From: Squalus acanthias
Taxonomy: Eukaryota
Length of the DNA: 64,000 nt
Direction: 5' to 3'
NCBI GenBank assembly: GCA_030390025.1
Contig: CM059432.1
Location: 60,328,001 to 60,392,000 of the forward strand
Shown: positions 1,883 through 40,968 of the stretch, piece by piece
Layout: every line of letters starts with the position of its first letter
How positions within the stretch are numbered: position 1 is the stretch's first letter
Translations under genes and position numbers: made by a program
Notes under the pieces: generated by a model
What the model was told of the DNA's origin: nothing
Database searches by the model: none
Seen by the model: the letters and a program-made list of their open reading frames with translations, nothing else

Positions 1883-2280
1883 GGAGGAAAAATTCGGTAC
1901 CTTAGCGCCTCCTGTTAGCATCAGCCGCTAACAGTTATCTCCAGGAGCCTCAACATCAGACGGATCGTGGCATCAGTGAGTGTGCAACGCTCACTGGCTG
2001 CCCTATCTGCGAAATTGATTGTCGCCACCTACATTAGCGCCTGGAGTAAACAGCGACAGGGAGAGCTGGCATGAAGCAGCAGGAAGCCGGCTCCAGGGAC
2101 ATTATTTAAAGGGATCATCAGTAATGAGTCGCAGCTGTAGGTTAGTGGTATTTCAGTGCTTACTTGTCAGTTTCACATAGTCCAACAGCCTCATTCCGTA
2201 ATTTCAAGGTTATTTAGTATCAGGAGTGTTGTGGCAACTAAAAAGTAGCTACATTTATTTATTATAGTAGCCACACAGCC

Positions 2281-3143
2281 GATCCTTCCAGTTTGCAACA
2301 GGAGACATAGCAAACATCTCGCAGTTCGCCATCCATCGCTGCATCTGGGATGTCACAGAGGCTCTCTACAGTAGGAGAAGGGACTACATTTCCTTCCCCA
2401 TCACCAGAGAGAAGCAGGATGAACGCACATGTGGCTTAACCAGGATAGCAGAATTCCCCATGGTGCAGGGTACCACTGACTGCACCCACGTGGCTTTGCG
2501 GGCACCGCATAACAATCCTGAGATTTTCTGTAACCGCAAAGGCTACCACTCACTTAATGTCCAGTTGGTGTGTGACCACAGACAGCTAATCATCAATGTG
2601 AATGGCCGCTATCATGGTAGCAGCCACAATGCCTTTATCCTGTGCCAGACCGGTATGCCAGCACTCTTCTAACCACCACGACCAGCTCGTGGCTGGCTGC
2701 TCGGAGACAAGGGCTATCCGCTCTCCACCTGGCTCATGACTCCCTTCCGCAACCCCAACACTCCTGCCCAGCACTCATATAATGAGAGCCATGCTGCCAC
2801 CAGGAACATCATTGAACAGACCATCGGGGTGCGCAAGCAATGGTTCCACTGCCTTGACCGCTCAGGCGGAGCCTTCCAGTACTCGGCTGAGCGGGTGTCC
2901 CATTTCGTGGTGGTCTGCTGCATGTTCCACAAATTGGCCATCATGAGGGCCCAGCCCTTGCCAGCAGGGATTACGGGACCACCTCAGGAGGAGGAAGAGG
3001 GAGAGGAGGAGGAGGATGAGAAGGAAGAGGAGGATGAGGAGGACAACGAGGAGGAGGCACAGGAGCGAGGGAGGAGGCAGCCACTCAGTCGGCCTTCCAG
3101 AAGGGCGGTCCGTGACTGCCTCATCAGACTGCGGTTCGAATGA
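2281..3143 (+). pseudogene. H1 Harbinger DDE transposase (5'-deleted, internal stop)
   Basis: [37 protein letters not shown] motifs; acidic tail; TAA at 2670-2672. Confidence 0.9.
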
Positions 3144-3665
3144 ATTAAACCCCAGATCCCTGTTGCTCACCACATTCCCATCATTCCATCCCTGTCGCAG
3201 GCCATACCACAGCGCAAAGCTGAAATGAGACACACCACAAAAGAATCCAAACTGAATTAATAAATTTATCAACAATCAGTGAACACATATTTACAACAAC
3301 AAAATTAACTATTCACCCTTGTGCAATCCCTTAGTGCCTGTCGTTACTCTGCCTTTGCCTACTCTAGTGCTCCTACGAAGTGTTGGCCCAGTGGCTGCAG
3401 CACTGCTTGTGGAAGGCTGCTGAGTGTCCATGTGGGAGACTTCAGATGGCCTTGCAGGATGCCCTTGACCAGCTCTGGGCCTGGAAGGCCCGGCTGTAGA
3501 TTGCATCACCTCAGCATGGGCGGCAGCAGTCTGGGCTGGCTGGATGACAGGCAGCAACAAGAGCAATGGTGGAGTGGCAGTGGAGGGAGCAGGAATGCTG
3601 TCATCCTGAGAGAGTTATAGAGGTCATGATGTGGAGATGCCGGCGTTGGACTGGGGTGGACAAAA

Positions 3666-4060
3666 ATGAGAAGTCGCACAACACCAGGTTATAGTCCAAC
3701 AGATTTATTTAATTTTACAAGCTTTCGGAGCAGTTCGCTCCTTCGTCAGGTAAGTTTAGCAGTGAGAGAATCTCCCAGAATTCACAATTTAAACACAGAC
3801 AAAATATATTCAAATCTTTCCCACATCAAAGAGCATAGCCAAGACAATGAGATGTGTCCCAGGGGGTCCAACGTGTCAAACCACCTGCTGGCTGCATATC
3901 CTGTCAATCTGTGTAGGTTCTTGTGTTAGCCTTTTTTAAAAAAAAACACCTGGGAAGACCGGCCATGATGTCAAGTCACGTTCTGTATCGTGACATGAAC
4001 CCGATATCGCGATTGAGGCCCTCCTCATGAGTGCGGAACTTGGCTATCAGTTTCTGCTCT
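3666..4060 (-). repeat. Left inverted pLTR arm (395 bp)
   Basis: Reverse complement of 6634-7028; one difference noticed (T/A run). Confidence 0.95.
3715..3753 (-). ncRNA. Minimal hammerhead ribozyme motif (inverted copy)
   Basis: Reverse complement of 6941-6979. Confidence 0.85.
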
Positions 4061-6718
4061 CTTGACACCGCAAACTGCCGGCTCAAAGTGGAGAGAATCG
4101 CCAAGAAGATCGCGCATATTGACACAGACATCAAGTACCCGCAGAGATGCAAGAAAGCAGACAAGATTCCGAAAGGACTACAGATCACGAACCCACTCAA
4201 GTCGACATACAACACAGACTACGCTGAGAGACTTTGCCGTCGTACCTCTCGCACACTCCTCAACCATCTCGTACACCAGCTCTACAGCAGACGTCGCAAC
4301 CTCGAAACCAAGATAGAGTCCATGCTCTCAGCCTGTGCTCAGGACACAGCAGACCAGCTACGAGACACCGCCAAACAGACGAGGCAACGGAACTACGCTG
4401 CCTACATGCGCATCAAGAACAGGAAGCTTGAGAAACTCGGCGTAACCACCAGCTACAACCAAGCCTCCCCCGGTACCACGGTTGCAACCACAGGGAAGTC
4501 CATCGTCAACCTGTCGGACCACACCCTTCAACCAGACGAAATCGAAGTTCTCGCCCTAGGGCTCACGTTCTGCCCCACCACCAAAATGGACCCCATCGGT
4601 CTCGCGGCGGACACAGAGGAATTCATCAGGAGAATGAGGATCCGGGAATACTACCACAAATCCCAAGATGTCAGCAACATTCCTAATGGGACAATCAATG
4701 ATCCGGAACAGCAGGCAGTGCTACAACCGAGGAAGAAAGAGTCAAATTGGACCCCTCCGGAGGGTCGCAACCCTAAGCTTGACATGTATGCTCAAGCTGT
4801 CAGGAAATGCATCAACGCCAGATTCATCAGCCGTACTCACAAGACAGTCCAGAATGTCACCCGAGCACAACGCAACGCCATCCACGCACTCAAGACCAAC
4901 CGCAACATCGTCATCAAACCAGCGGACAAAGGAGGAGCCATCGTCATACAGAACAGAATGGACTATTGCAAAGAAGCATACCGACAACTGGACAACCAGG
5001 AACACTACAGACAGCTACCCGCAGATCCGACCAAAGAACACACCCACCAACTCAATAGACTGATCAAGACCTTCGATCCAGACCTTCAAAACATCCTACG
5101 CGCTCTCATCCCACGTACTCCCCGCGTAGGAGACTTTTACTGCCTCCCAAAGATACACAAAGCCAACACACCTGGACGTCCTATCGTATCAGGCAACGGA
5201 ACCCTGTGTGAGAACCTCTCTGGGTACGTCGAGGGCATCCTGAAACCCATCGTACAGGGAACCCCCAGCTTCTGTCGCGACACTACAGACTTCTTGCAGA
5301 AACTCAGCACCCATGGACCAGTTGAACCAGGAACACTCCTCGTCACAATGGACGTATCGACACTCTACACCAATATCCCCCACAATGACGGCATCGCTGC
5401 GACAGCCTTAGTACTCAACACCAACAACAGCCAATCTCCGGACGCCATCCTACAACTCATCCGCTTCATCCTTGACCACAATGTCTTCACCTTCGACAAC
5501 CATTTTTTTACCCAAACACACGGAACAGCCATGGGGACCAAATTCGCACCCCAATATGCCAATATCTTCATGCACAAGTTCGAGCAAGACTTCTTCGCTG
5601 CACAGGACCTCCAACCAACGCTGTACACCAGATACATCGACGACATCTTCTTCCTTTGGACCCACGGCGAAGGATCACTGAAAGGACTACACGATAGCAT
5701 CAACAGGTTCCATCCCACCATCAAACTCACCATGGACTACTCCTCAGAATCGGTTTCATTCTTGGACACACGAATCTCCATCAAAGACGGACGCCTCAGC
5801 ACTTCACTCTACCGCAAGCCCACGGACAACCTCACGATGCTCCACTTCTCCAGCTTCCACCCTAACCACGTTAAAGAAGCCATCCCCTATGGACAAGCCC
5901 TGCGAATACACAGGATCTGCTCAGACGAGGAGGAACGCGATGGACACCTACGGACACTGAAAGACGCCCTCGTAAGAACGGGATATGACGCTCGACTCGT
6001 CGATCGACAGTTCCGACGGGCCACAGCGAAAAACCGCATAGACCTCCTCAGAAGACGAACACGGGACACAACCAACAGAGTACCCTACGTCGTCCAGTAC
6101 TTCCCCGGAGCGGAAAAACTACGCCATGTTCTTTGCAGCCTTCAACATGTCATCGATGACGACGAACACCTTGCTAAGGCCATCCCCACGCCTCCACTAC
6201 TCGCCTTCAAGCAGCCGCCTAACCTCAAAAGTACCATCGTTCGCAGCAGATTACCCATCTTTCAGGCGAACAGCAACCAAGACACCACACAACCCTGCCA
6301 CGGCAACCTCTGCAAGACATGCCAAATCATGGACACAGATACCATCATCACACGTGAGGACACTACCCACCAGGTACACGGTACATACTCATGTGACTCG
6401 GCCAACGTTGTCTACCTGATACGTTGCAGTAAAGGATGCTCCAGAGCATGGTACATCGGCGAGACCATGCAGACACTGAGACAACGTATAAACGGACACC
6501 ACGCAACAATCGCCAGGCAGGAGGGTTGCCTCCCAGTCGGGGAACACTTCAGCAGCCAGGGGCATTCAGCCTCGGATATGCGGGTAAGCGTTCTCCAAGG
6601 CGGCCTTCGAAATACACGACAGCGCAAAATCATAGAGCAGAAACTGATAGCCAAGTTCCGCACTCATGAGGAGGGCCTCAATCGCGATATCGGGTTCATG
6701 TCACGATACAGAACGTGA
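4058..6718 (+). CDS. PLE reverse transcriptase + GIY-YIG endonuclease (open frame; native ATG displaced by inversion)
   Basis: IKPADKGG, YCLPKIHK, GRPIVS, DVSTLYTNIP, GTAMG, RYIDDIF, FLD, YRKPT; Cys-rich linker PCHGNLCKTC; NVVYLIRC...WYIGET; no stops. Confidence 0.93.
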   Translation, partial: SLDTANCRLKVERIAKKIAHIDTDIKYPQRCKKADKIPKGLQITNPLKSTYNTDYAERLCRRTSRTLLNHLVHQLYSRRRNLETKIESMLSACAQDTADQLRDTAKQTRQRNYAAYMRIKNRKLEKLGVTTSYNQASPGTTVATTGKSIVNLSDHTLQPDEIEVLALGLTFCPTTKMDPIGLAADTEEFIRRMRIREYYHKSQDVSNIPNGTINDPEQQAVLQPRKKESNWTPPEGRNPKLDMYAQAVRKCINARFISRTHKTVQNVTRAQRNAIHALKTNRNIVIKPADKGGAIVIQNRMDYCKEAYRQLDNQEHYRQLPADPTKEHTHQLNRLIKTFDPDLQNILRALIPRTPRVGDFYCLPKIHKANTPGRPIVSGNGTLCENLSGYVEGILKPIVQGTPSFCRDTTDFLQKLSTHGPVEPGTLLVTMDVSTLYTNIPHNDGIAATALVLNTNNSQSPDAILQLIRFILDHNVFTFDNHFFTQTHGTAMGTKFAPQYANIFMHKFEQDFFAAQDLQPTLYTRYIDDIFFLWTHGEGSLKGLHDSINRFHPTIKLTMDYSSESVSFLDTRISIKDGRLSTSLYRKPTDNLTMLHFSSFHPNHVKEAIPYGQALRIHRICSDEEERDGHLRTLKDALVRTGYDARLVDRQFRRATAKNRIDLLRRRTRDTTNRVPYVVQYFPGAEKLRHVLCSLQHVIDDDEHLAKAIPTPPLLAFKQPPNLKSTIVRSRLPIFQANSNQDTTQPCHGNLCKTCQIMDTDTIITREDTTHQVHGTYSCDSANVVYLIRCSKGCSRAWYIGETMQTLRQRINGHHATIARQEGCLPVGEHFSSQGHSASDMRVSVLQGGLRNTRQRKIIEQKLIAKFRTHEEGLNRDIGFMSRYRT

Positions 6719-7028
6719 CTTGACATCATGGCCGGTCTTCCCAGGTGTTTTTTTTTTAAAAAGGCTAACACAAGAACCTACACAGATTGACAGGATATGC
6801 AGCCAGCAGGTGGTTTGACACGTTGGACCCCCTGGGACACATCTCATTGTCTTGGCTATGCTCTTTGATGTGGGAAAGATTTGAATATATTTTGTCTGTG
6901 TTTAAATTGTGAATTCTGGGAGATTCTCTCACTGCTAAACTTACCTGACGAAGGAGCGAACTGCTCCGAAAGCTTGTAAAATTAAATAAATCTGTTGGAC
7001 TATAACCTGGTGTTGTGCGACTTCTCAT
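6634..7028 (+). repeat. Right pLTR arm (395 bp), AATAAA at 6985-6990
   Basis: Overlaps the ORF end, as is typical for PLE pLTRs; inverted copy at 3666-4060. Confidence 0.95.
6941..6979 (+). ncRNA. Minimal type I hammerhead ribozyme motif
   Basis: TTAC-CTGACGA-A-GGAGC-gaact-GCTCC-GAAA-GCTT-GTAA: stem I TTAC/GTAA, stem II GGAGC/GCTCC, palindromic loopless stem III. Confidence 0.85.
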
Positions 7029-8994
7029 CCTGAGAGAGGACAGCAGGTTCCTGCTCCACTGACCCACTGCCACTCTCCCGGGGCAGTACCTCAGCATCTC
7101 TATCAATCTGTTGGAGCACAGATTGCTGGCCTGCTGCGACACCATGAAGGCCCCAGTCGACAGTGGTAGACCCAGCCACGATGGCAGCAGTCAGAGCTTG
7201 CGTGGCATCAAGCTGAGACTGCATGAGAGCAGTCTGAGATTGAATGGCACCAACCATAGACTGCATTACAACACTAAGATGTTGCGTTGCTTCTGCCTAT
7301 GCTGCAATGGAAGCTGCCAGATCATCTATTACACGTGGTCTCTCTGGGAGTCTATCATCCTTTGCAGACTGTAAATGATGGGCTCCATGGTGTGTGCAGA
7401 GCCTTGTACAATGTTGAAGACGGACTCCTCCACGCACCTTATCATTGCCGAGAGGCTATCGGGGACCCTTGCCATTGCAGCTATCATCTCCACGTGCATG
7501 CCCATCACCCTTCTTCTAAACGCCACCCTATCGAGGTCCTCATCTGAGCCCTGTGCAGCAGAACTCACACGTGAACTCGCCCTCCGGGGAGCTGAACCCC
7601 GAGCTACCCTTTCCCCCTGGCCTTGCTGCAGCCCACTCGTCCCCAGTGCCTCACCCTGTGCAGATCCCGCTACTATACTAGCCTCTAAAGAATGAGTAGT
7701 GCCAGTATCTGAGTGGGTGCCTGCGGGTGAGACATGCAGTGACGTGGTGTGTTCTTCCTCCCCCTCTTCTCCCGCCTCGCTCTCTGCAGTGCCCTCAGGG
7801 ACAGGCTGCTCAGGTGCTTGCTCATTATCTGAAAGCATAAAGGCACAAGAGTCGAGTTAAGGTGAGGGGAGGGGACAGGAAGGGAGAAATGCATGCAAAG
7901 AGCATGATTAGCTGGAAAGTGCGAAACACTTGTGGGGTGAGGGGGAAGTGGGATGTGAGAAGGAGTAGGGATGAACGTACCGTTGTTGTCCCCAAGGGGG
8001 TCAATGTCGCCAGTGGCTACGGCACCCGCCATCTGGCACCCAATGATCTCCAGCACTCTATTTTCCAGTGCAGACAGTGGTTGGGTGTCGACTTGTTACC
8101 CCCCCACCCCCTCTTTATGCTCCTGCTCCCTCCTGTTGTGAGCCACCTTGGCCTGCAAGAGAAAGGAAAGTGTGTGAGTGAGTGTGGAGCAATATGTTTG
8201 GGTGATGTGCCTGCCATAGTTGAATAGCTGTCATTGTGTGCAAGGTGTGAGATGTGGGTGTGAGTGTTGGCTGGTAGAGATTGTTGGTGGGTGAGTGCTG
8301 GGGGTGTGGTGCTTTGGTCAGTGTGTGCAGACTGAGGTTCAGATGGTGGTATGTAGCATTTGTTGAAGCATTCACTCACCCTGACCAACTGAGTGAGGTC
8401 GTTAAATTTCTTCCTGCAATGTGTGTGGGTGCTGGGGACCACAGTGCTGCCCCAGATGTCCTCCGCTACCTCCCTCCACATGGTGCGGAAGACTTGCGGC
8501 GAGGGCCTCCTGCCACTTGCCAGGTAGAGCACCGCCCTCCGTCTCTCGACAGCGAACACCAATGCCTCCAATGCTTGATCGCTGAATCTGCGGGCTCTCG
8601 CCCTGGGGCGTGGATCTGCCATGAGCACAGCTGCTTCAGTCCTCCGGCTCCTTTTCCTTGACCTGCTGCTGCTTGCTGAGGAAGCTGCACAGCCAGCAAT
8701 GCTGAGAATGAGGGTCTGTAGCATCAATGAACTTTCCCGTTAAGAACTGGAAAAAGCCTGTGGCAATCATGACTTGCGATTAGAATGCACCTGATATTGG
8801 TCCACCCTTTGAGTGTAATGCCAATGAGCTTGGGCTTAAAGACTTGAATTAGTGCTCCAATCATTTCTTTGAGCAGTGAGCATGAATTTTGCGTGCAGTC
8901 TAAAGCATTAGCGCCTAGCGTTAATTCTCCAACTTTTCTAATTTTAGCACCCATTCCTGGGCTATAATGAATTTCTAGCCCTATGTTTTTATGC

Positions 8995-10847: not shown

Positions 10848-10995
10848 AAAGCAAATACTGTGGATGCTGGAAATCTGAAATAAAAACAGAAAATGCTGGA
10901 AATACTCAGCAGGTCAGGCAGCATCTGGCAGTATTTCTCTCGCCACAGATGCTGCCTGACCTGCTAAGTATTTCCAGCATTTTTTGTTTCTACAT
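10848..10995. mobile_element. Fold-back fragment of the second PLE family's pLTR
   Basis: 44-bp inverted arms 10884-10927 / 10946-10989; same sequence family as 22010-22081 and 47990-48150. Confidence 0.75.
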
Positions 10996-11189: not shown

Positions 11190-14100
11190 GGAGAGTAAAT
11201 TTTAGCTTTTCAGCTAACAGATGTGCTCTGTATTTATATTTGTGCCAATCTAGCAGGAGATTTAGGCCATACTGAAGCTGTAGCAAGTAAACTGCTGTTT
11301 TAATGTCGATCGGTTATAAATTGGTTAGCCCCCGAAAATGGACGCCAACTTCGTGCTGCCTGTTAATTATAATGATTCCTGCATGCAGCCAGCGCTCCCA
11401 GTGCTGTCCAGTGGCTGCACGCATTAGCATGGGCCCAATATCATTAGTAACTTGCACTACTTAAAGCCAGTCTGCACCTCTTAAAGGGGAGGAGTACTGT
11501 GGCTAGAGCAGGTGCGGGGAGTCATTCTTCAACTGATTCTGATGTGGGACAGAGAGAAGACTGGCTGACCATGGGAGAACGCGGGCCCCCAGCTTTTTGG
11601 ACGCTGCACTGAAGGTCTTGGTGGAGGAGTTGCAAAGGAGGACAGATGTCCTGTATCCTCAGGGGGGTAGGAGGCCCTCGAGACACACGATGAGAAGACA
11701 GTGGGAACAGATAGCCGCAGAGATTAATGCCTGGAGTGTAGTACCAAGGACCTGGATGCAGTGCTGGAAGAAGTTTAATGCCCTCACACGAGTGGTCAAG
11801 GTCACTGAATGCATCTTCAATTGCCATATCCCACCAACTGCACCATTAGCATCAGCCACTGGTCAATTCACCACACCTCCATCACTCACCTACCTACAAT
11901 CTCTGTCAATCAGGACTCATAACTACATTATATGCTTCACCTCCCCCTCACACATTTAGCATTGTTGCAGGTGTCATCGACAGTGCTATCAAGCGGCACT
12001 TACTCACCAATAACCTGCTCACTGATGCCCAGTTTGGGTTCCGCCAAGACCACTCAGCTCCCGGCCTCATAACAGCCTTGGTACAAACATGGACAAAGGA
12101 GCTGAATTCCAGAGGTGAGGTGAGAGTGACTGCCCTTGACATTAAGGCGGCATTTGACTGAGTGTGGCATCAAGGAGCCCTGGTAAAACTGAAGTCAATG
12201 GGAATCAGGGGGAAAACTCTCCACTGGCTGAAGTCATACCTAGCACAAAGGAAGATGGTTGTGGTGGTTGGAGGTCAATCATCACAGCCCCAGGACATCG
12301 CTGTAGGAGTTCCTCAGGGCAGTGACCTAGGCCCAACCATTTTCAGCTGCTTCATCAATGACCTTCCCTCCAACATAAGGTCAGAAATGGGGATGTTCGC
12401 TGATGATTGCAGAGCGCTCAGCGCCACTCATAACTTCTCAGATAATGAAGCAGTCCATGCCTGCATGCAGCAACAAGACCTGGATGACGTTCAGGCTTGG
12501 GCTGATAAGTGGCAGGTAACATTCGTGCCACACAAGTGCCAGGCAATGACTATCTCCAACAAGCGAGAGTCTAACCACCGCCCCTTGACATTCAGCGGCA
12601 TTACCATTGCCGAATCCCCCACAATCAACATCCTAGGGGTCACCATTGACCAGAAACTTAACTGGACCAGCCACATAAATACTGTGGAAACAAGAGCCAG
12701 ACAGAGGCTAGGTATTCTGCGGCGAGTGTCTCACCTCCTGACTCCCCAAAGCCTTTCCACCATCTACAAGGCACAAGTAAGGAGTGTGATGGAATACTCT
12801 CCACTTGCCTGGATGAGTGCAGCTCCAACAACACTCAAGAAGCTCGACACCATCCAAGACAAAGCAGCCCACTTGATTGGCACCACATCCACCACCTTAA
12901 ACATTCACTCCCTCCATCACCAGCATACCTTGGCTGCAGTGTACACCATCTGCAAGATGCACTGCAGCAACTCGCCAAGGCTTCTTCGGCAGCACCTCCC
13001 AAACCCGCGACCTCTTCCACTTCGAAGGACAAGGGCAGCAGGCGCAAGGGAACACCACCATCTCCAAGTTCCCCTCCAAGTCACATACCATCCTGACTTG
13101 GAAGTATATCGCCGTTCCTTCATCGTCGCTGGGTCAAAATCCTGGAACTCCCTCCCTAACAGCACTGTGGGAGTACCTTTACCACACGGACTGCAGCGGT
13201 TCAAGAAGGCAGCTCACCAGCACCTTCTCAAGGGCAATTAGAGATGGCCAATAATAGCTGGCCTTGCCAGCGACGCCCACATCCCATGAACAAATTAAAA
13301 AAAGCCTCACACCCACATCTCACAGCTTGCACACACTGCCAGCTATTCATCTATGACAGCCACATCATCCAAACAGATTGCACAACATTTACTGTCACAT
13401 TTCACTCTTTCTTGCAGAAGGTGGAGCACAATTGGAGGTAGCAGGAACTAACTGGAAACAGTGCTGGCCATTGTGGGAAGGGTTATTGCTAAGGCCGAAC
13501 CCAATGAAGATGATGGTCATACCTAATCCTCCTTTTCACATCCCACTTCTCCCTCATCCCTAACTCTCTTCTGACTTAAAAGCTGCAGATGACGTGAGTG
13601 TGCAGTTCTTATTTTCTCCCCTTCCCTCACCACAACCCAACCCTTGTCCCTTTTTCATTTCAGGTACCCAAGAACTGCAACCTGCCCAGGCAGTGGTGGA
13701 AGAGCAGGAAGACAGTGAAGATGAAGACACACCGTCATTCGATTTCACAGTCGCAGCCACCAGCTCAGATACTGACACTGCGTGTAATTTAGAGGATAGC
13801 ACAGAGGCGGGATCTGCACATGGTGAGACACTGGGCAGAAGTGTGTTGCAGCCAGGGCAGGTGCCAGCTTGCCGGAGAACGAGGTCGCACATTAGTTCTG
13901 CTGCAGAGGTCTCAGATGAGGACTTCGATGGGCTAGGCTACAGAAAAAGGTTGATGGGTGTACACACCAAAATGCTTGATTCATTGGGAAGTCTGCCAGA
14001 AAGCCTGTGTGCAATGTCAAGGAGCATGGAGGAGTCTGGCACCAACTTGGCACAGGGCTTTGCGCAGAGCTTGGAGCCCATCCTTTCCAGCAGAATGGGT

Positions 14101-16010
14101 GGCCAACTCCATCAACACACTTGTAGACGCAACCATGATGCAGCATCCGATGGCCGATGTCTCAGCTTCCATTGCAGCAGAAGTAGCAGCCACCCAATGT
14201 CTGAGTGCTGCAGTGGAAGCTCAGACTGCTGCCATCATAACTCTGGATACCAGTGTTCAAAGGGGCTTCCAAGGTGTCACAACAGTCCAGTAATCTGTTC
14301 TCCAACAGGCTACAAGGAGTGCTGAGGTGCTGCACTGGGAGAGTGGCAGTGGCTTCATGGAGCACGAACCTGCTATCCTCTGTCCGGAGGACAGCATTCG
14401 TGCTCGCACCCCTGCCACTCCGCCAGTGCCCTTGCTATCAGCCAGCCAGCCCAGACTGCTGCTGCCCATGCTCAGATGTTGCAGTCTGAAGCTGGGCCTC
14501 TAGGCCCAGAGCTGCGCGAGGTCATCCTCTGCAGTCTCCTCCACTGAAATTCAACAGCCTTTCACCAGCCATGCTGCAGCCACTGGGGAAGCACCTCATA
14601 GGAGCACTAGGACAGGCAAAGGCACATGGAAGACAGGAACTAAGTGAATGCACAAGGGTAATTAGTTTATTTTTTTTATGCAATATGGTATGATTTAATT
14701 TATAAATTTGCATTGGAATGTCTATTTTGTGTTAGCAATTATTTTTCCATAGTGGCCAAGAGGATGATGTGATGGTCAGTGACTGAGGGAAGGTAAGGAG
14801 TGTGGGATTGTTGGTGAATGGGGAATTGGGGTTTAGGTTACTGGTATCACTATTGAATTAGTTGTTCACGTACAGCCCAGGCAGAAATAGGCTGTCTAGT
14901 TTGCAGCCTCCCTTCCTCTTCCTCTCTTCCATCTCGTCCTCTTCCTCTGCCTTCTCCTCCTCTGCCTCCTTCTCTTCCTCCTCCTCATGCTCCTCAGCTT
15001 CTCATCTGATAGGTGGTGGCAAGGGCTGTTCCCTCATGATGGCAAGGCTGTGCAGCATGTAGCATACCACCACAAATCTTGAGACCTGCTCAGCCGAGTT
15101 CTGCAGGGCTCCTCCAGAGCAGTCCAGGCAGCGGCATCATTATTTCAGGATGCCAATGGTCTGCTCTATTAGATTTATTGTGGCAGCGTGGCTCTCGTTG
15201 TATGCCTGCTGCGCGTATGTGCATGGGTTATGAACAGGAGCCATGTTGTCAACTGATAGTCCTTGTCACGGTTGAAATACAGCAGGCACAGAGGCCTGCC
15301 ACAGAATTAATGCATTGTGACTGCTGCCAGGATACCGGACATTGACCTGCATGATGCGCTGTCTGTGGTCACACACCAGCTGCACGTTGAAGGAGTGGAA
15401 TCCCTTTTGGTTCAGGTACGTGGCAGAGTTGACATGCGGCACATGCAAAGCAATGTTCATGCAGTTAATGGCACCCCGCACCATGCGGAAGTTGGCAATC
15501 CTTGCAAACCCTCGTGCTTGCCCCACCTGCTTCTCTCTGGCAAGAGGGAATGAAATGAAGTTATCTCTCTTTGCATAGAGAGCCTCAGTGACCTCCCTTA
15601 TGCAGAACTGCACTGCAAACTGCGAGATGTTGCTAATATCACCAGCACCAGCCTGGAAGGAGCCAGACTCATAAAGGTTCATAGCCACAGTCACCTTCAC
15701 AGCAACTGGCAATGCGATCCTTGCCCTGCTGTGAGGTTGGAGTTGTGGTGTAGCAGTTGGCAGATTTCAGTGAAAACCTCCTTAGTGAAGTGCAGACATC
15801 TCAAACATTGGTTGCCGCTGAAGTTCAGGTAAGAGAATTGTGCCCTGATCACCTTGGGGCGGATATGGCCTCCTGCTGAGAGTCCTTCTCTATCTTATCC
15901 TCGTCTAACTTCTAGCAGGTTGCGTGGTCGCTGCTCATTCTCCCAGTCATGCTCAATTCCAACAGCAAGGCCTACCAGGCCACAAATATCATAAAGCAAT
16001 TGGTTTGAAT
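11190..16010. mobile_element. Degenerate Harbinger H2 (Myb on +, 11571-14643; transposase on -, about 14860-15990); ends approximate
   Basis: DAALKVLVEELQRRTDVLYP...WEQIA...[40 protein letters not shown]; TIRs not resolved. Confidence 0.8.
11970..13303 (+). mobile_element. CR1-group LINE (family B), 5'-truncated, inside H2 Myb intron 1
   Basis: 359-aa ORF with GVPQGSDLGP and FADD; ends ...LLKGN* + CCCACATCCCATG + A-rich tail. Confidence 0.88.
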
Positions 16011-16367: not shown

Positions 16368-18101
16368 GGGCTAGAAATTCGTTATAGCCAAAAAAAGGGC
16401 AATGTTTAGACTAAAAATGGTTAAGTAGCGCCACCTGAAAATCATCTAAGCTGCAAGCAAAATTTGTCCTCACTCCTCATTAAAATGATTGCAGTCATGA
16501 TTCTTGACGTAAGAAAACTACTAGGCACTTGGTCTAAGCGTTAAACAAAGCTTTAATCAACTGTTTTTCAACATGGAGATCTGGTTGTGTCCTTCACTAG
16601 TTCCTGTTAAAGAATGTCCTGAGCAAGCTGGGCCCATGCCCGAGTATTTATACTCTCCCTGGACAGCGCCACCAGCAGGCCGCCCAGTATTATTTCCTAA
16701 GTCATTTCCACATGAATGACAAGATTCATGTCAATTCTCATCTAAAAATTCAAGCTCATTGGCATTCACTGAAAAGATCGACCAATATTGGGGGCAGTCT
16801 AAATGCAAGTAATGATTGCCACAGGCTATTTTCACTACTTAAAGGGGAGGTTCATTGATGCTGCAGAACCTCATTCTCAGCATTGTTGGTTGTGCGGCTG
16901 CCTCAACAACCATAAGAAGAAGGACAAGGAGAAGGAGCACTTATTTACAAATCCTGATGGTAGATCGCTGCCCCAGGGAGAGGTTTTCCGATGAAGCTTT
17001 GGAGGCATTGGTTTTAGCGGTGGAGAGAAGGCGGGTGGTCCTGCATCCGTCAACTGGCAGGAGGCCCTTGCCACACTCTGCCAGACTATGTGGAGGGAGG
17101 TGGCACACCACGTCGCGGGCAGCACTGTGGTCCCCAGGACCCACACACAGTGCATGAAGAAGTTTAACAAGCTCACACGAGTGGTCAGGGTGAGTGAAGG
17201 CTTCAACAAATGCAACATACCACTATCTGTACCACAAGCTTCAAACAATACTCAATGCACCACACCCACAGCATTCACCCACCAACAATCTCTACCTAAC
17301 AACACTCACACCTACATCTCACACCTTGCACACAATGACAGCTATTCAACTATGGCAGGCACAAGGGTCATTAGTTATTAGAGTTCAAGTGCTATGTGTG
17401 ATATGTTTATAAATAAATGTATTAATTGTGTTTGGAATATTTTGTGGTCTCTCTCATTTCACATTTGCACCCAGGAGGATGCTGTGATATGGTGTGAGAC
17501 AGGGACTGTATGATGGGGATGTGGTGAGTTACGGGGATCTGGGGTTTCATTCATGTGAATCAGACTCTGCTGAGCCAGTCACGGACAGCCCATCCAGAAG
17601 GCTGACTGTCTCGCTGCGTCCGCCCTCCCTCCTGTTCCTCCTCCTCCTCCTCGTCCTCCTCCTCCTCTGCCTCGTCGTCCTCCTGCGGTGGTCCCACAAT
17701 CCCTGCTGGCAAGGGCTGCGCCCTCATGATGGCCAAGTTGTGGAGCATGCAGCAGACCACCACAAAATGGGACACCCACTCCGGCGAGTCCTGGAGGGTT
17801 CCTCCTGAGCAGTCAAGGCCACATGCATGTTTGTCCTGCTTCTCTCTGGTGATCGGGAAGCCAATGTAGTCCCTTCTCCTGCTGTAGAGAGCTTCAGTGA
17901 CCTCCTGGATGCAGCGATGGATGGCAAATTGTGAGATGTTAGATATGTCTCCTGCTGCAGACTGGAAAGATCTGCTGGTGAAGAAATTGAGGGCTACGCT
18001 AACCTTGACTGCCACTGGGAGAGGCGTGGTCACCCTGGACTGAGGCTGGAAGTCTGGTTGCAGGAGGTGGCAGAGTTCTGTGACCACCACCTTGGTGAAG
18101 C
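16368..18101. mobile_element. Internally deleted Harbinger of the H1 family, opposite orientation, right end lost
   Basis: GGGCTAGAAATTCGTTATAGCC matches the reverse complement of the H1 right end; Myb exon 1 on + from 16957; transposase remnant on - 17530-18100. Confidence 0.8.
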
Positions 18102-18473
18102 TACAGAATGTGACTCGACATCGTTGTCTGTCTTTCCAGTTTAAAAAAAAACAACAACCAAAAAAAAAGTTAAAAGCTCAACTGCAGACGGCAACATTTG
18201 ACACGTTGGACCCCCTGTGACCCACCTCATTGTCTTAGCTGTACTCTGAGGTGTCTTTGATGTAATGCCTTCCTAACAGATGGTATCTCTGCAGACAAAT
18301 TGCTCTCTGTGTATATATACTGCCGATTTGTATTCCCTCACTGTACTTGTACCTGAAGAAGGAGCAGCGCTCCGAAAGCTCGTAATTTTAAATAAAACTG
18401 TTGGACTATAACCTGGTGTTGTGCGACTTCTCATTTTTGTCCACCCCAGTCCAACACCGGCAACTCCGCATCA
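18102..18473 (+). mobile_element. Solo pLTR related to the 3615-7024 Penelope
   Basis: Shares TTTGACACGTTGGACCCCCTG, GTTGGACTATAACCTGGTGTTGTGCGACTTCTCAT and CCACCCCAGTCCAAC. Confidence 0.85.
18350..18384 (+). ncRNA. Minimal hammerhead ribozyme motif
   Basis: TAC-CTGAAGA-A-GGAGC-agc-GCTCC-GAAA-GCTC-GTA. Confidence 0.8.
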
Positions 18474-21835: not shown

Positions 21836-22084
21836 TATTCTGCTTCTGTTATTCATGAAATCACTCCTGTCTTCGACCTTATCACAGAACTTCCCTTTTG
21901 TTCTTTCCTCCACTCCCCCCTTTCCCTGCACCTGTACTTGCATAAAACCTGTTACCATCTGTAACGTTTTCCAATTCTGATGAAATGTCACAGACCTGAA
22001 ATGTTAACTCTGTTTTTATCTCCACAGATGCTGCCTGGCCTGCTGAGTATTTTCAGCATTTTATGTTTATGTTTCAGATTTCAA
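21836..22084 (+). mobile_element. pLTR of the second PLE family with decayed hammerhead (21974-22008); resumes at 26325-26352
   Basis: ATT-CTGATGA-A-ATGTC-aca-GACCT-GAAA-TGTT-AAC, then CAGATGCTGCCTGGCCTGCTGAGT; continues CCAGCATCCGCAGTA after H3. Confidence 0.75.
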
Positions 22085-22602
22085 AGGTTGGATTTTACCA
22101 GCCCTGAGGAGGCAGGTCTGGAGGCGGGACTGGTGAGAAAATTGGAAAAAATGACGGCGGGTTCCGATCCCGCCGTCAACCAGCCTCCGCGCAACTTTGC
22201 CAGAGGCGGGCTTGCAGAGTCAGTTTCGGTCAGGTGGCGGGATAGGCCCTTAAGGCACTTAACTACCACTTAAGTACTGCTATAATCCCATTTTGAGAGG
22301 CCTTTCAAATTTTGCCACATTTCCAGCGTGCTGCACATCTCTTCTGAAACACGCCAGCTAATCATGTCGGGTTGACAAGTGGCTGGCTTCCTAAGAGCTG
22401 CAGCTCCACCATAAAAACGGAGCTCTCAACAAGGATCAGTTGCAGGTGGCAGAACTTTGTTTTTCCAGGTCTAGGAGAACTTTTTGCAGGTCCACTGATC
22501 TTGGAAGTGGTGAAGCTGAGATCCATCTCCACTGTGACCTCTTGGGAAAACCCTCTCCCCACATTGACTGAGCGCTTCCTCAACTTGATATCTACCAGCA
22601 GC

Positions 22603-23822
22603 ATGGGAACCATTTATTCCTTTCATCCTGGTCCTTAGATTCGGAGGACGTGCAGCCGCTGCAGCAGCAGAACCAGGCACAACAGCAGCACCAACAGGAA
22701 GGCGAACCTGCTGCTCACCCACATGATTGTGCAAAGGGCAGAAGGCACCAGCGCAGGGAAGCACGTCGCCGCAGGAGATATCCCCAAAACAGGGTTTACA
22801 GGATGAGGATGAGCTTCCTGGACATGAGTGAGCAGCAGTGCCAAAGGAGGCTGAGACTTTCGCGTGAGGTAGTCGGTGACATCTGCGCAATGCTGCACCA
22901 GCACCTGGAGCCCAGAGGAGCGGGTGGACACCCCTTACCAGTGGCTGTCAAAGTGACCACTGCACTCAACTTTTTTGCTTCAGGCTCCTTCCAGGGATCA
23001 TCAGCAGACATCAGCAGCATCTCCCAGTCGGCCGCACACACTTGCATCACGCAGGTTACTGATGCCCTCTTTCCAAAGGCGCCCAATTACATACATTTCT
23101 CCACGGATCAAGCAAGTATAACCGCGCGTGCGGTTGGCTTTGCAAATATGGCAGGCTTGCCAAGGGTGCAGGGCATCGTAGACTGCATACATGTGGCCCT
23201 TAAGGCACCCCATCACAACCCAACTCTTTTTGTCAACCGCAAGGGTTTCCACTCCCTCAACGCGCAGCTGGTGTGTAACCACAAGAAGGACATTTTGCAT
23301 GTTTGCGCCAAGTACCCTGGTAGTTGCCATGACTCGTTCATCCTGCGGCAGTCTAGTGTGCCTCCGCTCTTCAGTCCGCCAAACCAACTTTGCGGATGGC
23401 TACTTGGAGACAAGGGCTATCCCCTGAAGACGTGGCTAATGACACGGTTCAGGAGGCCATCCAATGAAGCTGAGGAGCGCTACAACTCGAGCCACCTTTC
23501 GACCAGATCCATCATCGAGCAAACCATCGGCTTGCTGAAGATGCGATTCAGGTGCCTTGACAGATCAGGTGGAGCCCTGCAGTACTCAGCAGCCAGTGTC
23601 TCCAGAATCATCGTGGTCTGCTGTGCACTGCACAACATTGTACAGTATCGTGGCTTGCAGTTGCCTGAGGAACAAGTGGCTTAGCGCATAGCCTCCTCAG
23701 ATGAGGAGGAGGAGAACCAGAATGAAGACCTCGCGGATGCGCATCAACCAGCTGCAGCAGCACGCGAGCACACTGCTGCCTGGGATGCAAGGGATACACT
23801 CATCTTGGCCAGATTTGCTTAA
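22603..23822 (+). pseudogene. H3 transposase with open 344-codon core (22650-23684)
   Basis: VDCIHV, HDS, LGDKGY, IEQTIG, CCALHN; frameshift just after the ATG and TAG at 23682 before the acidic tail. Confidence 0.9.
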
Positions 23823-24079
23823 GTTGCCCATTCAAACACGTGTGCCTGGCACCTTCTTACTACACCATAGACAATGGACAAGAACCTGTGGCTTCCTATC
23901 ACTCTGACCACCATCATGACAAATACAATTCGCCATGAGCCCTCAATGTGGAACTTCCATTTCCGAAATGACAGAGTCCAGAACTTCAACAATTTGCCAT
24001 CACTTCATTTTAATACATTGACCACAGGATGGCATATAACAATTAACCACAACAGAACACCCAAGTGACTACCCTTGTG

Positions 24080-26052
24080 ACTACTTGTGCATTATCTTCC
24101 TCTTACGAGTGCTCTATGTGGTGCTTCCCCTGTGGCTTCAGCAGATGTGAAGGCTTCTTGCTCACTCTCATGCTGCTCCTGCTTCGACACCTTTGGCGGG
24201 CGTCCTCTGGGGTTGCGAGGGCTCACCAACAGTCTGCTGCACCTGCGGCTGTGCAGGGGCTGAGAAGCCCATCTCAGTTGGGTGAGGACTCTGGTGGGGC
24301 TCTGACCGAGGGCTCCGCAGTGGCATGGGAGTGTGAGTGCTTGGAGAGGAGCCCCCACTTCCTTGTTCTCTGCCACCAACATCCATCTCATGGGTCAGCC
24401 CCACTTCAGAGCTAGCAAGTAGCTTGACAGCACCTTGCGGCACATCAGGGGGGCCATGAGGACCCATTTCTGCACTGGCAGTCCTACTCCAGAGGACTTC
24501 CATGAAGGTCTGGTTTCTCTGATCAATAGCTGTCCATCGCTCCTCCAGAGATGTCAGTCTATTCTGAACATTCACCATGTTTTCCACACTCTGGCAACTG
24601 AGCTCTTCCATGGCCGTAGCCATCCTCTCCTCCACCGTAGCCATCCTTTCCACGGAGGTAGCCATCATTTCCACGGAGGTTGCCATTCTTTCCGCGGTGA
24701 TGTGTTGATTCGCCAATGCCTCCACAAAGGCTCTGCTCATGTTCGCGTTGGACTCCTCCATCCGCTCCACACTCGCAGTGACCCTGGAGACAAAACCTGC
24801 CAGAGACTCCTGCACCTGTTCCTGGAGTTCCAGCACCGCTCTCCTTCTGGTTGGACCCGGAGGCACAGGGTCCACATGCAGCTGAGCCGAGCTGGCAGAG
24901 TCCTGCGGCCTCCGATGAGGACTCTCCGCTGCTGTCCCTGTCTCCACCATCTGCTGATGCTCACTTGTGAGCTGTGATACACCAGGTGACAACACTACTC
25001 TATGTTGCAAAGGTCCCACTGAGGTGTGCGTATCTGCACTGGTGCTGGGTGCGCTTAATTCTGCTGACGCTGCGCCGTCAGAAGTTGCAGGCTCCTCTGA
25101 GGAGTCTTCCGGCTCAGCCTCTTCCTCCTGGACAGTGGGGAGGGGGGTTGTTGATGGTCCTGTGGGGGAGTAAAGGCATGAGTTAGACATGTGATATAAA
25201 CATAGCATGCACATGGAATAGTGCAGATAATCATAAGTGAATCTGTTTGAGCATCAGAAGCCATATCAGTCACTCATGCAATGTCAATGAAAAAGATGCA
25301 AAACTATTCTGTCACCAGCTTGTTCTGATGTGCCCGTCTGTCCGTCCCCCACTTCCACATCCTCCCTGGCACCAACGATCTCTAGGGCCGCGTCCTCTGC
25401 GCTGGTAAGATGGGCTATTGAGGCTGGCCCTCCTCTGGTCTTCGCCCATTCCCTCTTATTGTGGGCTCTCTTTTCCTGCAATGAGGGACACAAGTGGAGT
25501 TTGAGTGAGAATGATGGAGTGAGTGTAGATAATCCATAGCATAGATGCTTAGAAGGACACAAAGATGGAGTGAGGTCCCAATACTAAGGGCCCTCCCTGT
25601 GTGTTGTTAGTTGTTGTCATAACATAACAGTGATAGGGAGTGTGAGGGCAGCATAGTCGAATAGTTAAGTGATTGTGCACATAGAGAGGGAATGATTAAG
25701 GGTGCAAGGGATGTAAGGCTAAAGTGGGATGTGTAGGAGTAGGTTGACAATGCAGAGTGATGGTGCTGAGAGGAGATGGGGAGCAGAATGAGGGTAAAGG
25801 TGATGCTATACTCACTTTGCCTGTTCGGACAAGGTCATTGAACCTCTTTCGGCACTGCAGCCAGGTTCTGCTGCACATCGATCTGGCACTCACCTCCTGG
25901 GCAACTTGCAGCCACACAGCTTTGGTCTGCTGGGGAGGTTTTTTCCTCCCAGACGATGGAAAGAGCACCTCATTTTGTGCTCTGGCTCCCTCCACCAGAG
26001 CATGGAGGGAGTCATCATTAAAGCGAGGTGAGGCCTTGGGCACTAGCTCCAA
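24080..26052 (-). pseudogene. H3 Myb/SANT gene, 3 exons (about 26052-25816, 25475-25316, 25159-24080)
   Basis: SPRFNDDSLHALV...WLQVA...CRKRFNDL; exon 2 EKRAHNKRE..TRGG; no ATG found; frameshift near the C-terminus. Confidence 0.8.
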
Positions 26053-26605
26053 AAACTATTTTCAACAGAAGCTAACACAAGCGTTTAGGCACAAAATGAG
26101 CCAAGGCTGCTTGGAGCCCTTAAATGCAGCTGGAGAAATGATGTCATCGGAGGCGAGTTTCAGGCCCAAAAAACTAATTGGGCCAGGGGTTCGCACACAC
26201 TGGGAATCAATTGCCCAATTAGGGCAAAATCGCAATTTTTTCTAGCCCGACAGTGGAGGCGGGATCGGGACCCGCCGACCACCTGACCCACACCCAACCC
26301 GCCACCAATGGCAAAATCAAGCCCCCAGCATCCGCAGTACTTTGCCTTTTGTAGAAAGACCCATGTTCAGTTTTCCACTCTGCTAAATGGCCAATCTGAG
26401 CCACACCCATTGAGGGGATGCTGAGCAAAAAGTGTGCCATCTCCCATCAGAGGTGTGGAAAAAATTGGACAGGTTAATCCATCTTGGGTGTTAAATCATA
26501 TCGCTCAGAGCCAAAGGGGGATTATCAGAGATTTGAAAGCAGATCATTTACCACTTTGGCAGTACTGAGATGAATCCAGGCAAAATGAAGAACAAAAATA
26601 CTTTA

Positions 26606-31229: not shown

Positions 31230-34200
31230 TTTTTCTTTATTTCATTCATGAGATGTGAGCGTCGCTGGCAAAGCCAGCATTTATTGCCCATCCCTAATTG
31301 CCCTTGAGAAGGTGGTGGTGAGCTACCTTCTTGAACCGCTACAGTCTGTGTAGTGAATGTACTCCAACAGTGCTGTTAGGTAGGGAGTTCTAGGATTTTG
31401 ATCCAGCGACAATGAAGGAACGGTGATACATTTCCAAGTCAGGATGGTGTGTGACTTCGAGGGGAACTTGGAGGTGGTAGTGTTCCCATGCACCTGCTGC
31501 CCTTGTCCTTCTAAATGGTAGAGGTCGCAGGTTTAGGAGGTGCTGTCAAATAAGCCTTGGCGGGTTTCTGCAGTGCATCTTGTAGATGATACACACTGTA
31601 GCCATGGCACGCTGGTGGTGGAGTGAATGTTTACAGTGGTGGATGGGGTGCCAATCAAGCGGGCTGCTTTGTCCTGGATGGTGTCGAGTATCTTGAGTGG
31701 TGTTGGAGCTGCAATCATCCAGGCAAGTGGAGAGTATTTCATCACACTCCTGACTTGTACCTTGTAGATGGTAGAAAGGCTTTGGGGAGTCAGGAGGTGA
31801 GTCACTCGCTGCAGAATACCCAGCCTCCAACAGTATTTACGTGGCTGGTCCAGTTAGGTTTCTGGCCAATGGTGACACCCCAGGATGTTGATGGTGGGGG
31901 ATTTGACGATGGTAATGCCGTTGAATATCAAGGGGAGGTGGTTAGACTCTCTCTTGTTGGAGATGGTCATTGCTCAGCACTTGTGTGGCATGATTGTTAC
32001 TTGCCACACAGCCCAAGCCTGAATGTTGTCCAGGTCTTGATGCATGTGGGCACAGACTGCTTCATTATCTGAGGAGTTGTGAATGGAATTGAACACTGTG
32101 CAATCATCAGCAAACATCCCCACTTCTGACCTTATGATGGAGGGAAGGTCATTGATGAAGCAGCTGAAGATGGTTGGGACTAAAATACTGCCTTGAGGAA
32201 CTCCTGCAGCGATGTCCTGGGGCTGAGGTGATTGACCTCCAACAACCATAACCATCTTCCTTTGAGAGCTAGGTATGACTCCAGCCAGTGGAGAGTTTTC
32301 CCCCTGATTCCCATTGAAATCAATTTTACTAGGGCTCCTTGATGTTACTAGGCCACACTCGGTCAAATGCTGCCTTGATGTCAAGGGCAGTCACTCTCAC
32401 CTCACCTCCGGAATTCAGCTCTTTTGTCCATGTTTGGATCAAGGTTGTAATGAGGTCTGGAGCCGAGTGGTCCTGGCGGAACCCAAACTAAGCATCGGTG
32501 AGCAGGTTATTGGTGAGTAAGTGCCGCTTGATAGCACTGTCAACAACCCTTCCATCACTTTGCTGATGGTTGAGAGTAGACTGATGGGGTGGTAATTGGC
32601 CGGATTGGATTTGTCCTGCTTTTGGTTGACAGACTATGGGCAACACGGTGGCATAGTGGTTAGCACTGTTGCCTCACAGCGCCAGGGACCCGGGTTCGAA
32701 TCTGACCTCGGATGACTGTCTGTGTGGAGTTTGCACATTCTCCCCGTGTCTGCGTGGGTTTCCTCCGGGTGCTCCGGTTTCCTTCCACAGTCCAAAGATG
32801 TGCGGGTTAGGTTGATTTGGCTATGATAAATTCACCCTTAGTGTTAGGGGGATTAAATACGTGGGGTTACGGGGATAGGGTGGGATATGTGTCGATGGGC
32901 TGAAATGGCCTCTATCTGCACTGTGGGGATTCTGTGATTCTGTGAGGACATACCTGGGCAATTTCCCACTTTGTTGGGTAGATGCCAGTGTTGTAGCTGT
33001 ACTGGAACCGCTTGGCTAGAGGTGCAGCTATTTCTGGAGCACAAGTCTTCAGCACTACAGCTGGGATGCTGTCGGAGCCCACAGCCTTTGCTGTATCCAG
33101 TGCGCTCAGCCATTTCTTGATATCATGTGGAGTGAATCGAATTGGCTGAAGACTGGCTTCTCGCGGAGCAGGCTCGAAGGGCTGAATGGCCTACTCCTGT
33201 TCCTATTTTTCTATGGTGGGGACCTCAGGAAGAGGCCGAGACGGATCATCCATGCGGCACTTCTGGCTGAAGATGGTTGCAAACACTTCAGCCTTGTCTT
33301 TTGCGCTCGCGTGCTGGGCTCCGCCATCATTGAAGATGGGAATGTTCATAAAGTCTCCTCCTCGCATTAGTTGTTTAATTGTTCACCACCATTCATGACT
33401 GGATGTGGCAGGACTTCAGAGCTTTGATCTGATCTGTTGGCTGTAGGATTGCTTAGCTCGGTCTATAGCATGCTGCTTTCGCTGTTTAGTATGCATGTAG
33501 TCCTGTGTTGTAGCTTCACCAGGTTGGTATCTCATTTTTAGGTATGCCTGGTGCTGCTCCAGGCATGCTCTTCTACATTCCTCATTGAACCCCTGGCTTG
33601 ATGGTAATGGTAGAGTGAGGGATATGCCGGACCATGAGGTTACAGATGGTGGAATACAATTCTGCTGCTAATGGCCCACGGCGCCTCATGGATGCCCATT
33701 TTTGAGCTGCTATATCTGTTCTGAATCTATCTCATCTATCACGGTGGTAGTGCCACACAATATGATGGAGGGTATCCTCAGTGTGAAGACAAGAACTGTG
33801 TGGTGGTCACTGCTACCAATACTTTCATCTGCGACTGGTAGCTTTGTGAGGACGAGGTCAAGTGGGTTTTTCCCTCATATTGTTTCTCTTGCTATCTGCC
33901 ACAGGCCCATTCTGGCAGCTATGTCCTTCAGGATGTGGGCTGCTTGGTCAGTAGTGGTGCTACCAAGCCACTCTTGCTGATGGACATTGAAGTCCCCCAC
34001 CCAGAGTACATTCTATGCCCTTCCAAGTGGCGTTCAACAGTGGAAGAGTACTGATTCATCAGCTGAGGGAGAACGCTAGGTGGTAATCATCAGAAGGTTT
34101 CCTTGCCCATGAGATTTCATGGGGTCCAGAGTCAATTTTGAGAACTCCAAGGGCCACTCCCTCCCGACTGTATACCACTGTGTCGCCACCTCTGGTGGGT

Positions 34201-34638: not shown

Positions 34639-35160
34639 TGCATGTTAACTTTCTGGGGGAAGAAGTCGGTTGGTTTGCGCCTCCCGTTAGCGCCTTAAGA
34701 GGGCGCTAATGAGGCGCAAAGCAACCAGCGCCCGGGCGCGGCGATCTCTGCGCCGCTCGCGAAATTGACCAGACATTTTGCAGCGGCGCTAAGCACTACC
34801 ACCCCGATCTCCAGCGCCCGCAGATCGTGACGTCAGTCGAGCTTGCAACACCCTTGTGGTGCCCCGGACTGGATATTGAGTGGCGCCCCCCTCCTTTCCG
34901 CCTGGCGCAAGCAACGACAGGGAGACTGGAATGTTTCCCAGTCAGTGAGGGGCTGGGGGGCGCTATTTAAAGGCGGCCTCTTCCTGGCTTTTTCTGTGGT
35001 AGACATTTTTGCACCACTCATTCTGACGGAGAGAGAGATTCGGAGAGAGAGGAGAGACTTCTGCATAGAGTCAACGCTGTCTGAAGTAGTTTTGGCTACT
35101 GAGCATCACTTTGCAGGTACTTTTGGATTTGACCTTCATTACTTCGATTACTAAGAGACT

Positions 35161-36253: not shown

Positions 36254-36645
36254 TCAGCAGTCGCACCAAGGCGGGAGGGAGGCCCACAATGTTGAAACTG
36301 CAAGGGACATCCGTCAATGGCTGATAAGAAGCCGCTTCTAGGCCCCTACTGAGGAAATGGCTTCTGGCATGGAGAACAACATGAATGAAAGCAACCCGCA
36401 ACCCCTAAGCCGGCCAAGGCAGCAATGATTCCAAACCTGTACATATTGAATACAAAAACTTTTTTATTTTACAAACTCTGTGTGTGTCATTTCTTCATGA
36501 CAAACTAATAGAAACAAACACAAAAAATAATTCATTAACATAACTGGTTCTCACAACCTGGAGATAATGTCCAAAACACGAAACAAAAGTTTGAACACGA
36601 ACCTCGGCCTTTAATAAAAAATTGACCAACATTTCGTCACACCTC

Positions 36646-40477: not shown

Positions 40478-40968
40478 CGGGAAAAAATTTGTTAGCTCCA
40501 CTTCCTTCTTAGAGCGCTAACCCTGAATATCGGGGTAGTACGTTCTGCAGCGCTAAGCACTGGGCCAAGTAGCACTGCTGCATGGAAGGGCTTTTCCCCT
40601 CATTAAAGGGAAGGGCCCAAGCCCACAACTCCGCGGGGCCCTAGCTGGACCACCGGGGAGCGGGGTGCCGTGCCAGCAACCGGCACACAAGAGGAGTGCC
40701 GGGCTGCCAGATTGCGGCACGGACCCCGCATTCAAAGAGGCAACGGGCCGCCACAAGTAAGTCAGCCGATTTTTTATCCCCGCCCGCGAGCCTCCTGTCG
40801 CTCCATTCCCAACCCCTGAATAGGACGCTGTCATCGCCTGGCGCAAACTCCTGCTGAATTTAGCGGGAGTCGTTAGCGGCGCCCCGCCTGGGTGAAAAGT
40901 CATTTGTGCCCCGTTAGTGCCCCCCTGGGGCCCTAAAGAGAGGCGCAAATGCACCGAATTTATAGCCC
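40478..40968. mobile_element. GC-rich Harbinger-type MITE
   Basis: Ends CGGGAAAAAATTT / GAATTTATAGCCC; TSD CTA; right end resembles H1 and H4 termini. Confidence 0.7.

Follow-up and report, generated by a model that had tools for sequence, protein, structure and literature searches.

A Penelope-like retroelement flipped right after its start codon, and a candidate origin by twin priming

Introduction

By what route does a retroelement come to lie in a genome with its start codon on one strand and the rest of its reading frame on the other? We met this arrangement in 64,000 nucleotides of Squalus acanthias DNA (GCA_030390025.1, contig CM059432.1, forward-strand positions 60,328,001 to 60,392,000). 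This whole stretch is called the window here, and all coordinates are its own. The typical insertion of a Penelope-like element (PLE) carries an inverted, 5′-truncated copy on its 5′ side and a one-sided tail of 30–40 nt (PMC8557442, PMC3846280, PMC8969392), and the layout of inverted pLTR plus tail is already well known, indeed textbook material. How PLEs form their inverted ends and tails is described as an open question (PMC8557442, PMC11167929). Here we describe the insertion, its probable family, its target and its condition, and we weigh the ways in which its front end may have been turned around.

Structure of the insertion

The insertion is bounded by two copies of a 14-bp target-site duplication (TSD), identical at 14 of 14 positions, which enclose 3410 bp. 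From left to right, its parts are as follows.

3601..3614, plus strand: left TSD copy, whose 3′ end would be the top-strand primer
3615..3618, plus strand: four extra nucleotides (TTAT) between the left TSD and the inverted arm
3619..3627, minus strand: first 9 nt of the ORF, with the ATG at 3627-3625, stranded on the inverted arm
3628..3665, minus strand: 38-nt "tail", the 5′ leader that separates the start codon from the usual 3′ end
3666..4060, minus strand: inverted pLTR arm, identical to 6634-7028 at 394 of 395 positions
4057..4060: CTCT microhomology where inverted arm and body join (inner junction), at +6 to +9 of the template
4061..6718, plus strand: ORF minus its first three codons, 885 aa (RT, linker, GIY-YIG nuclease)
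6634..7028, plus strand: part of the 3′ pLTR common to the inverted arm, including the last 27 codons and the stop
7025..7038, plus strand: right TSD copy, of which 7025-7028 (TCAT) is shared with the 3′ end of the element

The front end is flipped right after the start codon: the ATG lies on the inverted arm, and the body starts at codon 4. Thus, no full protein is expected from this copy. The left arm extends 47 nt (3665-3619) beyond the part shared with the right arm. Its 38-nt tail is absent from the right end of the element, and an older relative at 18332-18473 ends at the place matching 3627. A single TSD encloses both arms, the insertion has no direct 5′ pLTR, and the inverted arm reaches 9 nt into the ORF. 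The body frame (4061-6715) runs for 885 codons with zero stops, and its first in-frame Met is residue 88.

Most of a preliminary description of this locus was borne out. Its coordinates, its TSD, the CTCT and TCAT microhomologies and the four filler nucleotides were all found again, as was a cut-off ATG whose re-inversion restores an RT plus GIY-YIG protein of 888 aa (3 + 885 codons). It had also called the arms near-identical and the element free of stops and CpG-rich, which stands; the arms differ at 1 of 395 positions, at a T/A homopolymer boundary (3937/6757).

The repeat reflects a genuine duplication of the target: in the same window, a Harbinger paralogue holds the site once, at 14378-14391, and contigs of two public DNA runs, X1 and X5, cross from one host flank to the other without the insertion (flank-to-flank contigs in these runs: 26 at 3614; 59 and 31 at 7025). 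One possible objection is that the assembly mis-joined a direct copy. No contig among those listed spans the whole stretch, and the arms are nearly identical, which would invite such an error. However, the TSD around both arms is exact over 14 bp, extra nucleotides are present and the layout is the usual one for the class, which makes a mis-join barely credible.

The ORF start split here exists in un-inverted form elsewhere. In one X1 contig, found among the 24 of 2055 loose-end rows examined in the search for this junction, the 15 letters before 4057 equal the left-arm leader plus start codon (15/15). Homologue P0002 (60% identity, full length) likewise starts M-x-x-L-D-T, with its Met three residues before L-D-T. 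The refuting condition set by the preliminary description, that other full copies lack the MTSLDT junction or all share the inversion, is thus contradicted, on one contig and one homologue, which supports the view that inversion has split the start of the family ORF in this copy.

Classification of the element

The protein carries an RT domain (Pfam RVT_1, aa 420-550, E = 4.7e-8) with DKG and YIDD motifs, followed by a C-x4-C-xx-C linker at aa 746-754 that is present in 35 of the 40 top homologues. Its nuclease end is marked by VVY at 783 and YIG at 798, with C789 and C793 between them and H813 and H829 completing a CCHH set. Pfam searches of the window protein and of its C-terminal piece gave no GIY-YIG match, and the domain is shown via homologues: the C-terminal 142 aa give a 43% alignment with the Pfam GIY-YIG region of homologue P0026. 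A search by sequence for a relative of solved structure found none. As in EN+ Penelope-like elements, a single ORF (RT, then GIY-YIG) with CCHH is combined with pLTR, tail and TSD.

The closest named proteins come from sharks, at 79-94% identity among the best 120 of 1226 matches; among the matches listed, a Heptranchias perlo protein reaches 90% and one of Scyliorhinus torazame 84%. No named Neptune or Nematis reference was present among the best 120 of the 1226 homologues. According to PMC8557442, a C-x2-5-C-xx-C linker occurs in Neptune and in reduced form in Nematis, and is absent from Penelope/Poseidon. Because the linker motif is present, the Penelope/Poseidon clade is excluded. Judged by this linker motif, we call the element a Neptune-type Penelope-like retroelement. 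Further likenesses to the Neptune clade are the order of linker and GIY-YIG with CCHH, the DKG motif and a pLTR hammerhead; unlike that clade as described, the element sits at a palindrome tip in a Harbinger gene and not in a microsatellite (PMC8557442). An identity as Poseidon had been considered and was dropped, since the Zn-finger-like linker motif at aa 746-754 is one that Penelope/Poseidon elements lack.

Each arm holds a predicted minimal type I hammerhead, identified from motif and fold.

3715..3753, minus strand: minimal type I hammerhead motif within the inverted pLTR (motif scan, fold)
6941..6979, plus strand: minimal type I hammerhead motif in the 3′ pLTR (motif scan, fold)

The motif at 6941-6979 would have a 4-bp stem I, CUGANGA at 6945, a 5-bp stem II and a palindromic 15.2-16.2, with the predicted cut after 6975. 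The fold of 6935-6990 gives z = −3.07, and an Rfam search at E up to 10 matched no hammerhead model. Minimal hammerheads of this kind have been described for metazoan PLEs (PMC4209133).

The layout can be compared with that of the EN+ PLE unit Pen2a_Av of Adineta vaga. The two share an inverted, 5′-truncated pLTR, a one-sided tail, one TSD, and a pLTR plus tail that reaches into the beginning of the ORF (PMC3846280, PMC8557442). Unlike units of the Pen2a_Av type as described there, our copy has no direct 5′ pLTR and no palindrome at the inner junction, its arm extends 9 nt into the ORF, and its body begins exactly where its arm begins. This difference matters for one possible origin, self-priming on an antisense template, which has been proposed for rotifer Penelopes and for head-to-head PLE insertions (PMC3846280). 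That model needs a palindrome at the inverted junction, whereas none of 12 nt or more is listed at 4057, and we regard it as very unlikely here.

The target site

The insertion lies within an older transposon, whose relevant parts are these.

2673..3143, plus strand: C-terminal part of the host Harbinger transposase (DDE_Tnp_4, E = 1.2e-16)
3309..8598, minus strand: host Harbinger Myb/SANT gene, broken by the insertion in its last part
3566..3600: left arm of a palindrome in the host element, pairing with 7039-7073
7039..7073: right arm of the palindrome, pairing with 3566-3600

The Myb/SANT gene is recognized by a Myb_DNA-bind_5 match at 8380-8598 (E = 1.4e-4), and Harbinger paralogues run continuous across the insertion site. 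A long imperfect palindrome lies inside this gene, and its tip is the target. The target is G+C-rich, with a short GA run, and the TSD covers the palindrome loop and the nearest pairs, its centre lying 1 nt off the axis. In a test picked after the sequence was seen, with three flank lengths that all gave low values, a 54-nt fold of the site as it was before insertion has −19.1 kcal/mol, which 7 of the 31973 window tiles match. The empty paralogue (site 14378-14391) folds alike, at −17.6. The gap-free dyad score is modest, at 9 of 15 pairs, a value reached by 2.6% of positions.

The same site may have been used more than once. At least four joint rows, in five forms and from both DNA runs, link host positions 3612-3614 to the Penelope end at 3662-3667. 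Among the 15 of 256 joint rows examined, none links the Penelope end to another place in the 660 nt of host flank; the joint sides are 21-27 letters long at 90% likeness, a level flagged as unsafe. As a lead only, this points to repeated insertions at the same Harbinger site. Alternatively, Harbinger copies carrying Penelope scraps may have multiplied, which would give the same joints without repeated insertion.

Origin of the inverted arm

We propose that the insertion was made by twin priming, as in L1, and we give this reading a probability of roughly 0.6. The original paper on twin priming in L1 reportedly dates from 2001. Twin priming in L1 is described as marked by microhomologies, one at the inversion junction and one at either end (PMC2912911). 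With L1 5′ inversions our copy shares a TSD, an inverted 5′ segment, a body, microhomologies, and an arm that starts beside the start of the body; unlike L1, it has an RT and nuclease of a different class and no poly(A), and it would have needed a template longer than one unit (PMC2912911). The preliminary description had suggested twin priming or a template switch, and the geometry of the junctions fits such an origin.

The first line of evidence is the position of the two starts. On the template, the starts of arm and body share no more than 4 nt (CTCT), and the chance of such contiguity is about 0.3% for independent, uniform ends. That figure bears on an ordinary two-armed insertion from two RNA molecules, whose arm would have begun slightly past the usual tail end and whose body would have stopped near the ORF start by coincidence. 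An inverted, 5′-truncated copy with a tail is standard (PMC8557442), reverse transcription may stall near the start of the ORF, and the arm begins merely 8-9 nt beyond the tail end seen at 18473, all of which would suit two separate templates. The contiguity argues the other way if ends are uniform, and we consider two RNA molecules decidedly unlikely.

Pairing between target and template provides the second line, in tests that rest on one insertion and were picked after the sequence was seen. Exactly at 4057, the top-strand TSD overhang can form 8 base pairs, 6 Watson-Crick and 2 wobble, a number reached at 4 of 2958 body positions; the preliminary description had not mentioned this pairing. 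At the 3′ start site (7025), the bottom overhang can form 7 base pairs, 5 of them Watson-Crick, as it would at 3 of 2958 body positions and 2 of 428 left-arm positions.

Under twin priming, the nuclease of the element would nick both strands 14 nt apart at the palindrome tip, and both 3′ overhangs would prime reverse transcription on one RNA holding more than one unit. At the usual start site (7025, the tail start), the bottom overhang would anneal and be extended back across the entire ORF. The top overhang would anneal to the pyrimidine patch that spans ORF positions +6 to +13, and its cDNA would take in the start codon, the leader and 395 nt of the pLTR. On reaching the place of the second primer, the first copy would end, and both cDNAs would then be joined through CTCT/AGAG. 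The template would have to exceed one unit, so that the inverted part repeats the 3′ end.

Biochemical data exist for PAc, the Poseidon element of Anolis carolinensis: in vitro, its protein nicks both strands and extends them, and a dimer is predicted for it (PMC11167929). Both strands would be nicked and extended here as well; further likenesses are two internal start sites that bound the tail and a hammerhead near the ORF start (PMC11167929). In the published account, however, PAc prefers AT-rich targets, whereas ours is G+C-rich, and it has its tail within the ORF, with one of the start sites at +111 to +118, whereas ours lies just upstream of the ATG (PMC11167929). The anole element also starts in vitro at sites not homologous to the cut DNA (PMC11167929), whereas both overhangs here pair with the template; this counts against our reading.

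Further evidence against twin priming comes from the four extra nucleotides. They separate the top overhang from templated sequence, and because they intervene, the 8-nt pairing is not used cleanly. Moreover, TTAT shares 3 of 4 letters with element positions 6630-6633, immediately upstream of the far end of the arm, which is what a reciprocal inversion predicts and not what twin priming predicts. A double template switch while the second strand is being made could give such an inversion. In that case the first cDNA would pass the ATG into an upstream pLTR, and the top strand would start copying it in sense, jump via AGAG/CTCT to the RNA at +6 to +9, copy backward and jump back. The whole structure would then be a reciprocal inversion with two 4-nt inverted repeats as its endpoints, neither losing nor gaining sequence, and a likeness of TTAT to 6630-6633 at this level arises by chance in about 5% of cases. 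The price is two switches and a mismatch within 4 nt, and the 8-nt overhang pairing at the breakpoint (4 of 2958 places) becomes a coincidence. TTAT also forms part of a 7-nt match to pLTR positions 7000-7006, which accounts for the extra letters about as well and is equally weak. We hold the double switch to be unlikely.

The same reciprocal geometry would result if a partial tandem had at first been direct and 434 bp of it had been inverted afterwards, through repair or replication slippage between AGAG and CTCT. Here the homology is just 4 nt, an extra point change is required, and inverted arms are the family norm at the time of insertion; an event after insertion therefore seems highly improbable.

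Age and condition of the copy

Several observations suggest that this insertion of a common shark element is likely fairly recent and the copy dead. The observed/expected ratio of CpG is 0.90 in the ORF versus 0.34-0.42 in the flanks. Among 40 of 160 rows of copy-versus-contig differences that were examined, 30 fall in the ORF; in at least 13 of these 30, nearly all contig depth differs from this copy, or at least 0.5%, although the X1 and X5 runs may be of another species and part of the differences may reflect lineage. The host flank has 6 copy-specific rows in about 300 nt, and the insertion is therefore younger than its host. The letters of this copy at 4140, 5360 and 5409 have zero depth in X1 contigs, which drop rare variants.

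Ten of the 13 copy-specific ORF changes are non-synonymous (neutral expectation 67-77%), versus 6 of the 17 variants that are shared (Fisher p = 0.03), which suggests that this copy or its donor has decayed. Four of the 13 are CpG decay. Residue 434, which we take to lie three positions after a catalytic Asp of the RT, is Thr in this copy and Ala or Ser in 40 of 40 homologues; residue 27 is Pro, and Leu in 11 of 18. Since 1 of the 133 columns conserved at 90% or more differs, the damage is mild. Even so, the earlier phrase "otherwise intact" was too strong for an ORF with at least 13 copy-specific substitutions, 10 of them amino-acid-changing, and the idea that the source family could be rebuilt from this copy is likewise not supported. 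The copy lacks the features of an autonomous active one: the ATG is on the other strand, the first in-frame Met is residue 88, and the body carries copy-specific damage. As a single decayed copy of standard layout, it leaves the classification as it is and has little to offer as the source of an active element.

The identity of the arms can be set against this decay. At 0.5%, 3.9 differences between the arms are expected; the probability of one or none is 0.10, and of none 0.02. Either the changes were already in the donor and both arms were copied from one pLTR, as on a circle, or the arms were homogenized by conversion or polishing, or their likeness is due to chance. A circular template has been proposed (PMC4209133).

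Implications for inverted ends

The junctions are an unusually clean record of how the flipped layout likely forms. In a near-full-length copy whose second primer would have sat just past the start codon, arm and body meet on one template, a meeting that short stubs cannot show. Two testable rules are offered: start sites follow overhang pairing, and the nuclease favours palindrome tips. Among the papers listed by literature searches, none came up on twin priming by PLEs or on PLE targeting of Harbinger elements or palindromes, and older reviews may hold such a model.

More broadly, inverted Penelope ends could normally arise by twin priming. An enzyme of Neptune type, acting as a dimer, would nick both flanks of a palindrome or cruciform tip, and two 14-nt purine-rich overhangs would choose their starts by wobble-tolerant pairing to pyrimidine patches in one unit-length RNA, which may be circular. 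A circular RNA would explain identical arms beside a body with about 0.5% neutral-looking changes. We offer this general scheme tentatively and think it rather doubtful. As a separate observation, a U-run follows the 3′ start site and could accept purine-rich overhangs by wobble pairing.

Neighbouring repeats

The window holds a second pLTR of this general kind. At 18102-18473 lies an older relative (70-88% identical) with a hammerhead and a full tail that ends at the start-codon position; it sits in a Harbinger transposase, and next to it, from 18474, comes a broken RT fragment that belongs to a different Penelope-like family. A hammerhead-like core also occurs in a different repeat, at 48009-48116 (minus strand, core at 48114), with a similar one at 21975-22082.

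The Harbinger cluster comprises 2276-8832, 13517-15790, 16751-18106, 22866-23636, 35357-38427 and 61308-61734, with copies 64-86% alike, several of them nested or broken. The palindrome (3566-3614 with 7025-7073), in the Myb/SANT coding part, is kept in two copies, the paralogue being at 14343-14426, and a Harbinger copy near 36926 is without about 12 nt at the palindrome tip. Strong short DNA hairpins without an insertion are found at 10909-10964, 34667-34728 and 40669-40722. Large dispersed repeats at 22236-26242 and 58718-62712 are 79% alike over 4 kb, and others at 11969-13303, 31232-32632 and 57125-58520 are 86-91% alike over 1.3 kb.
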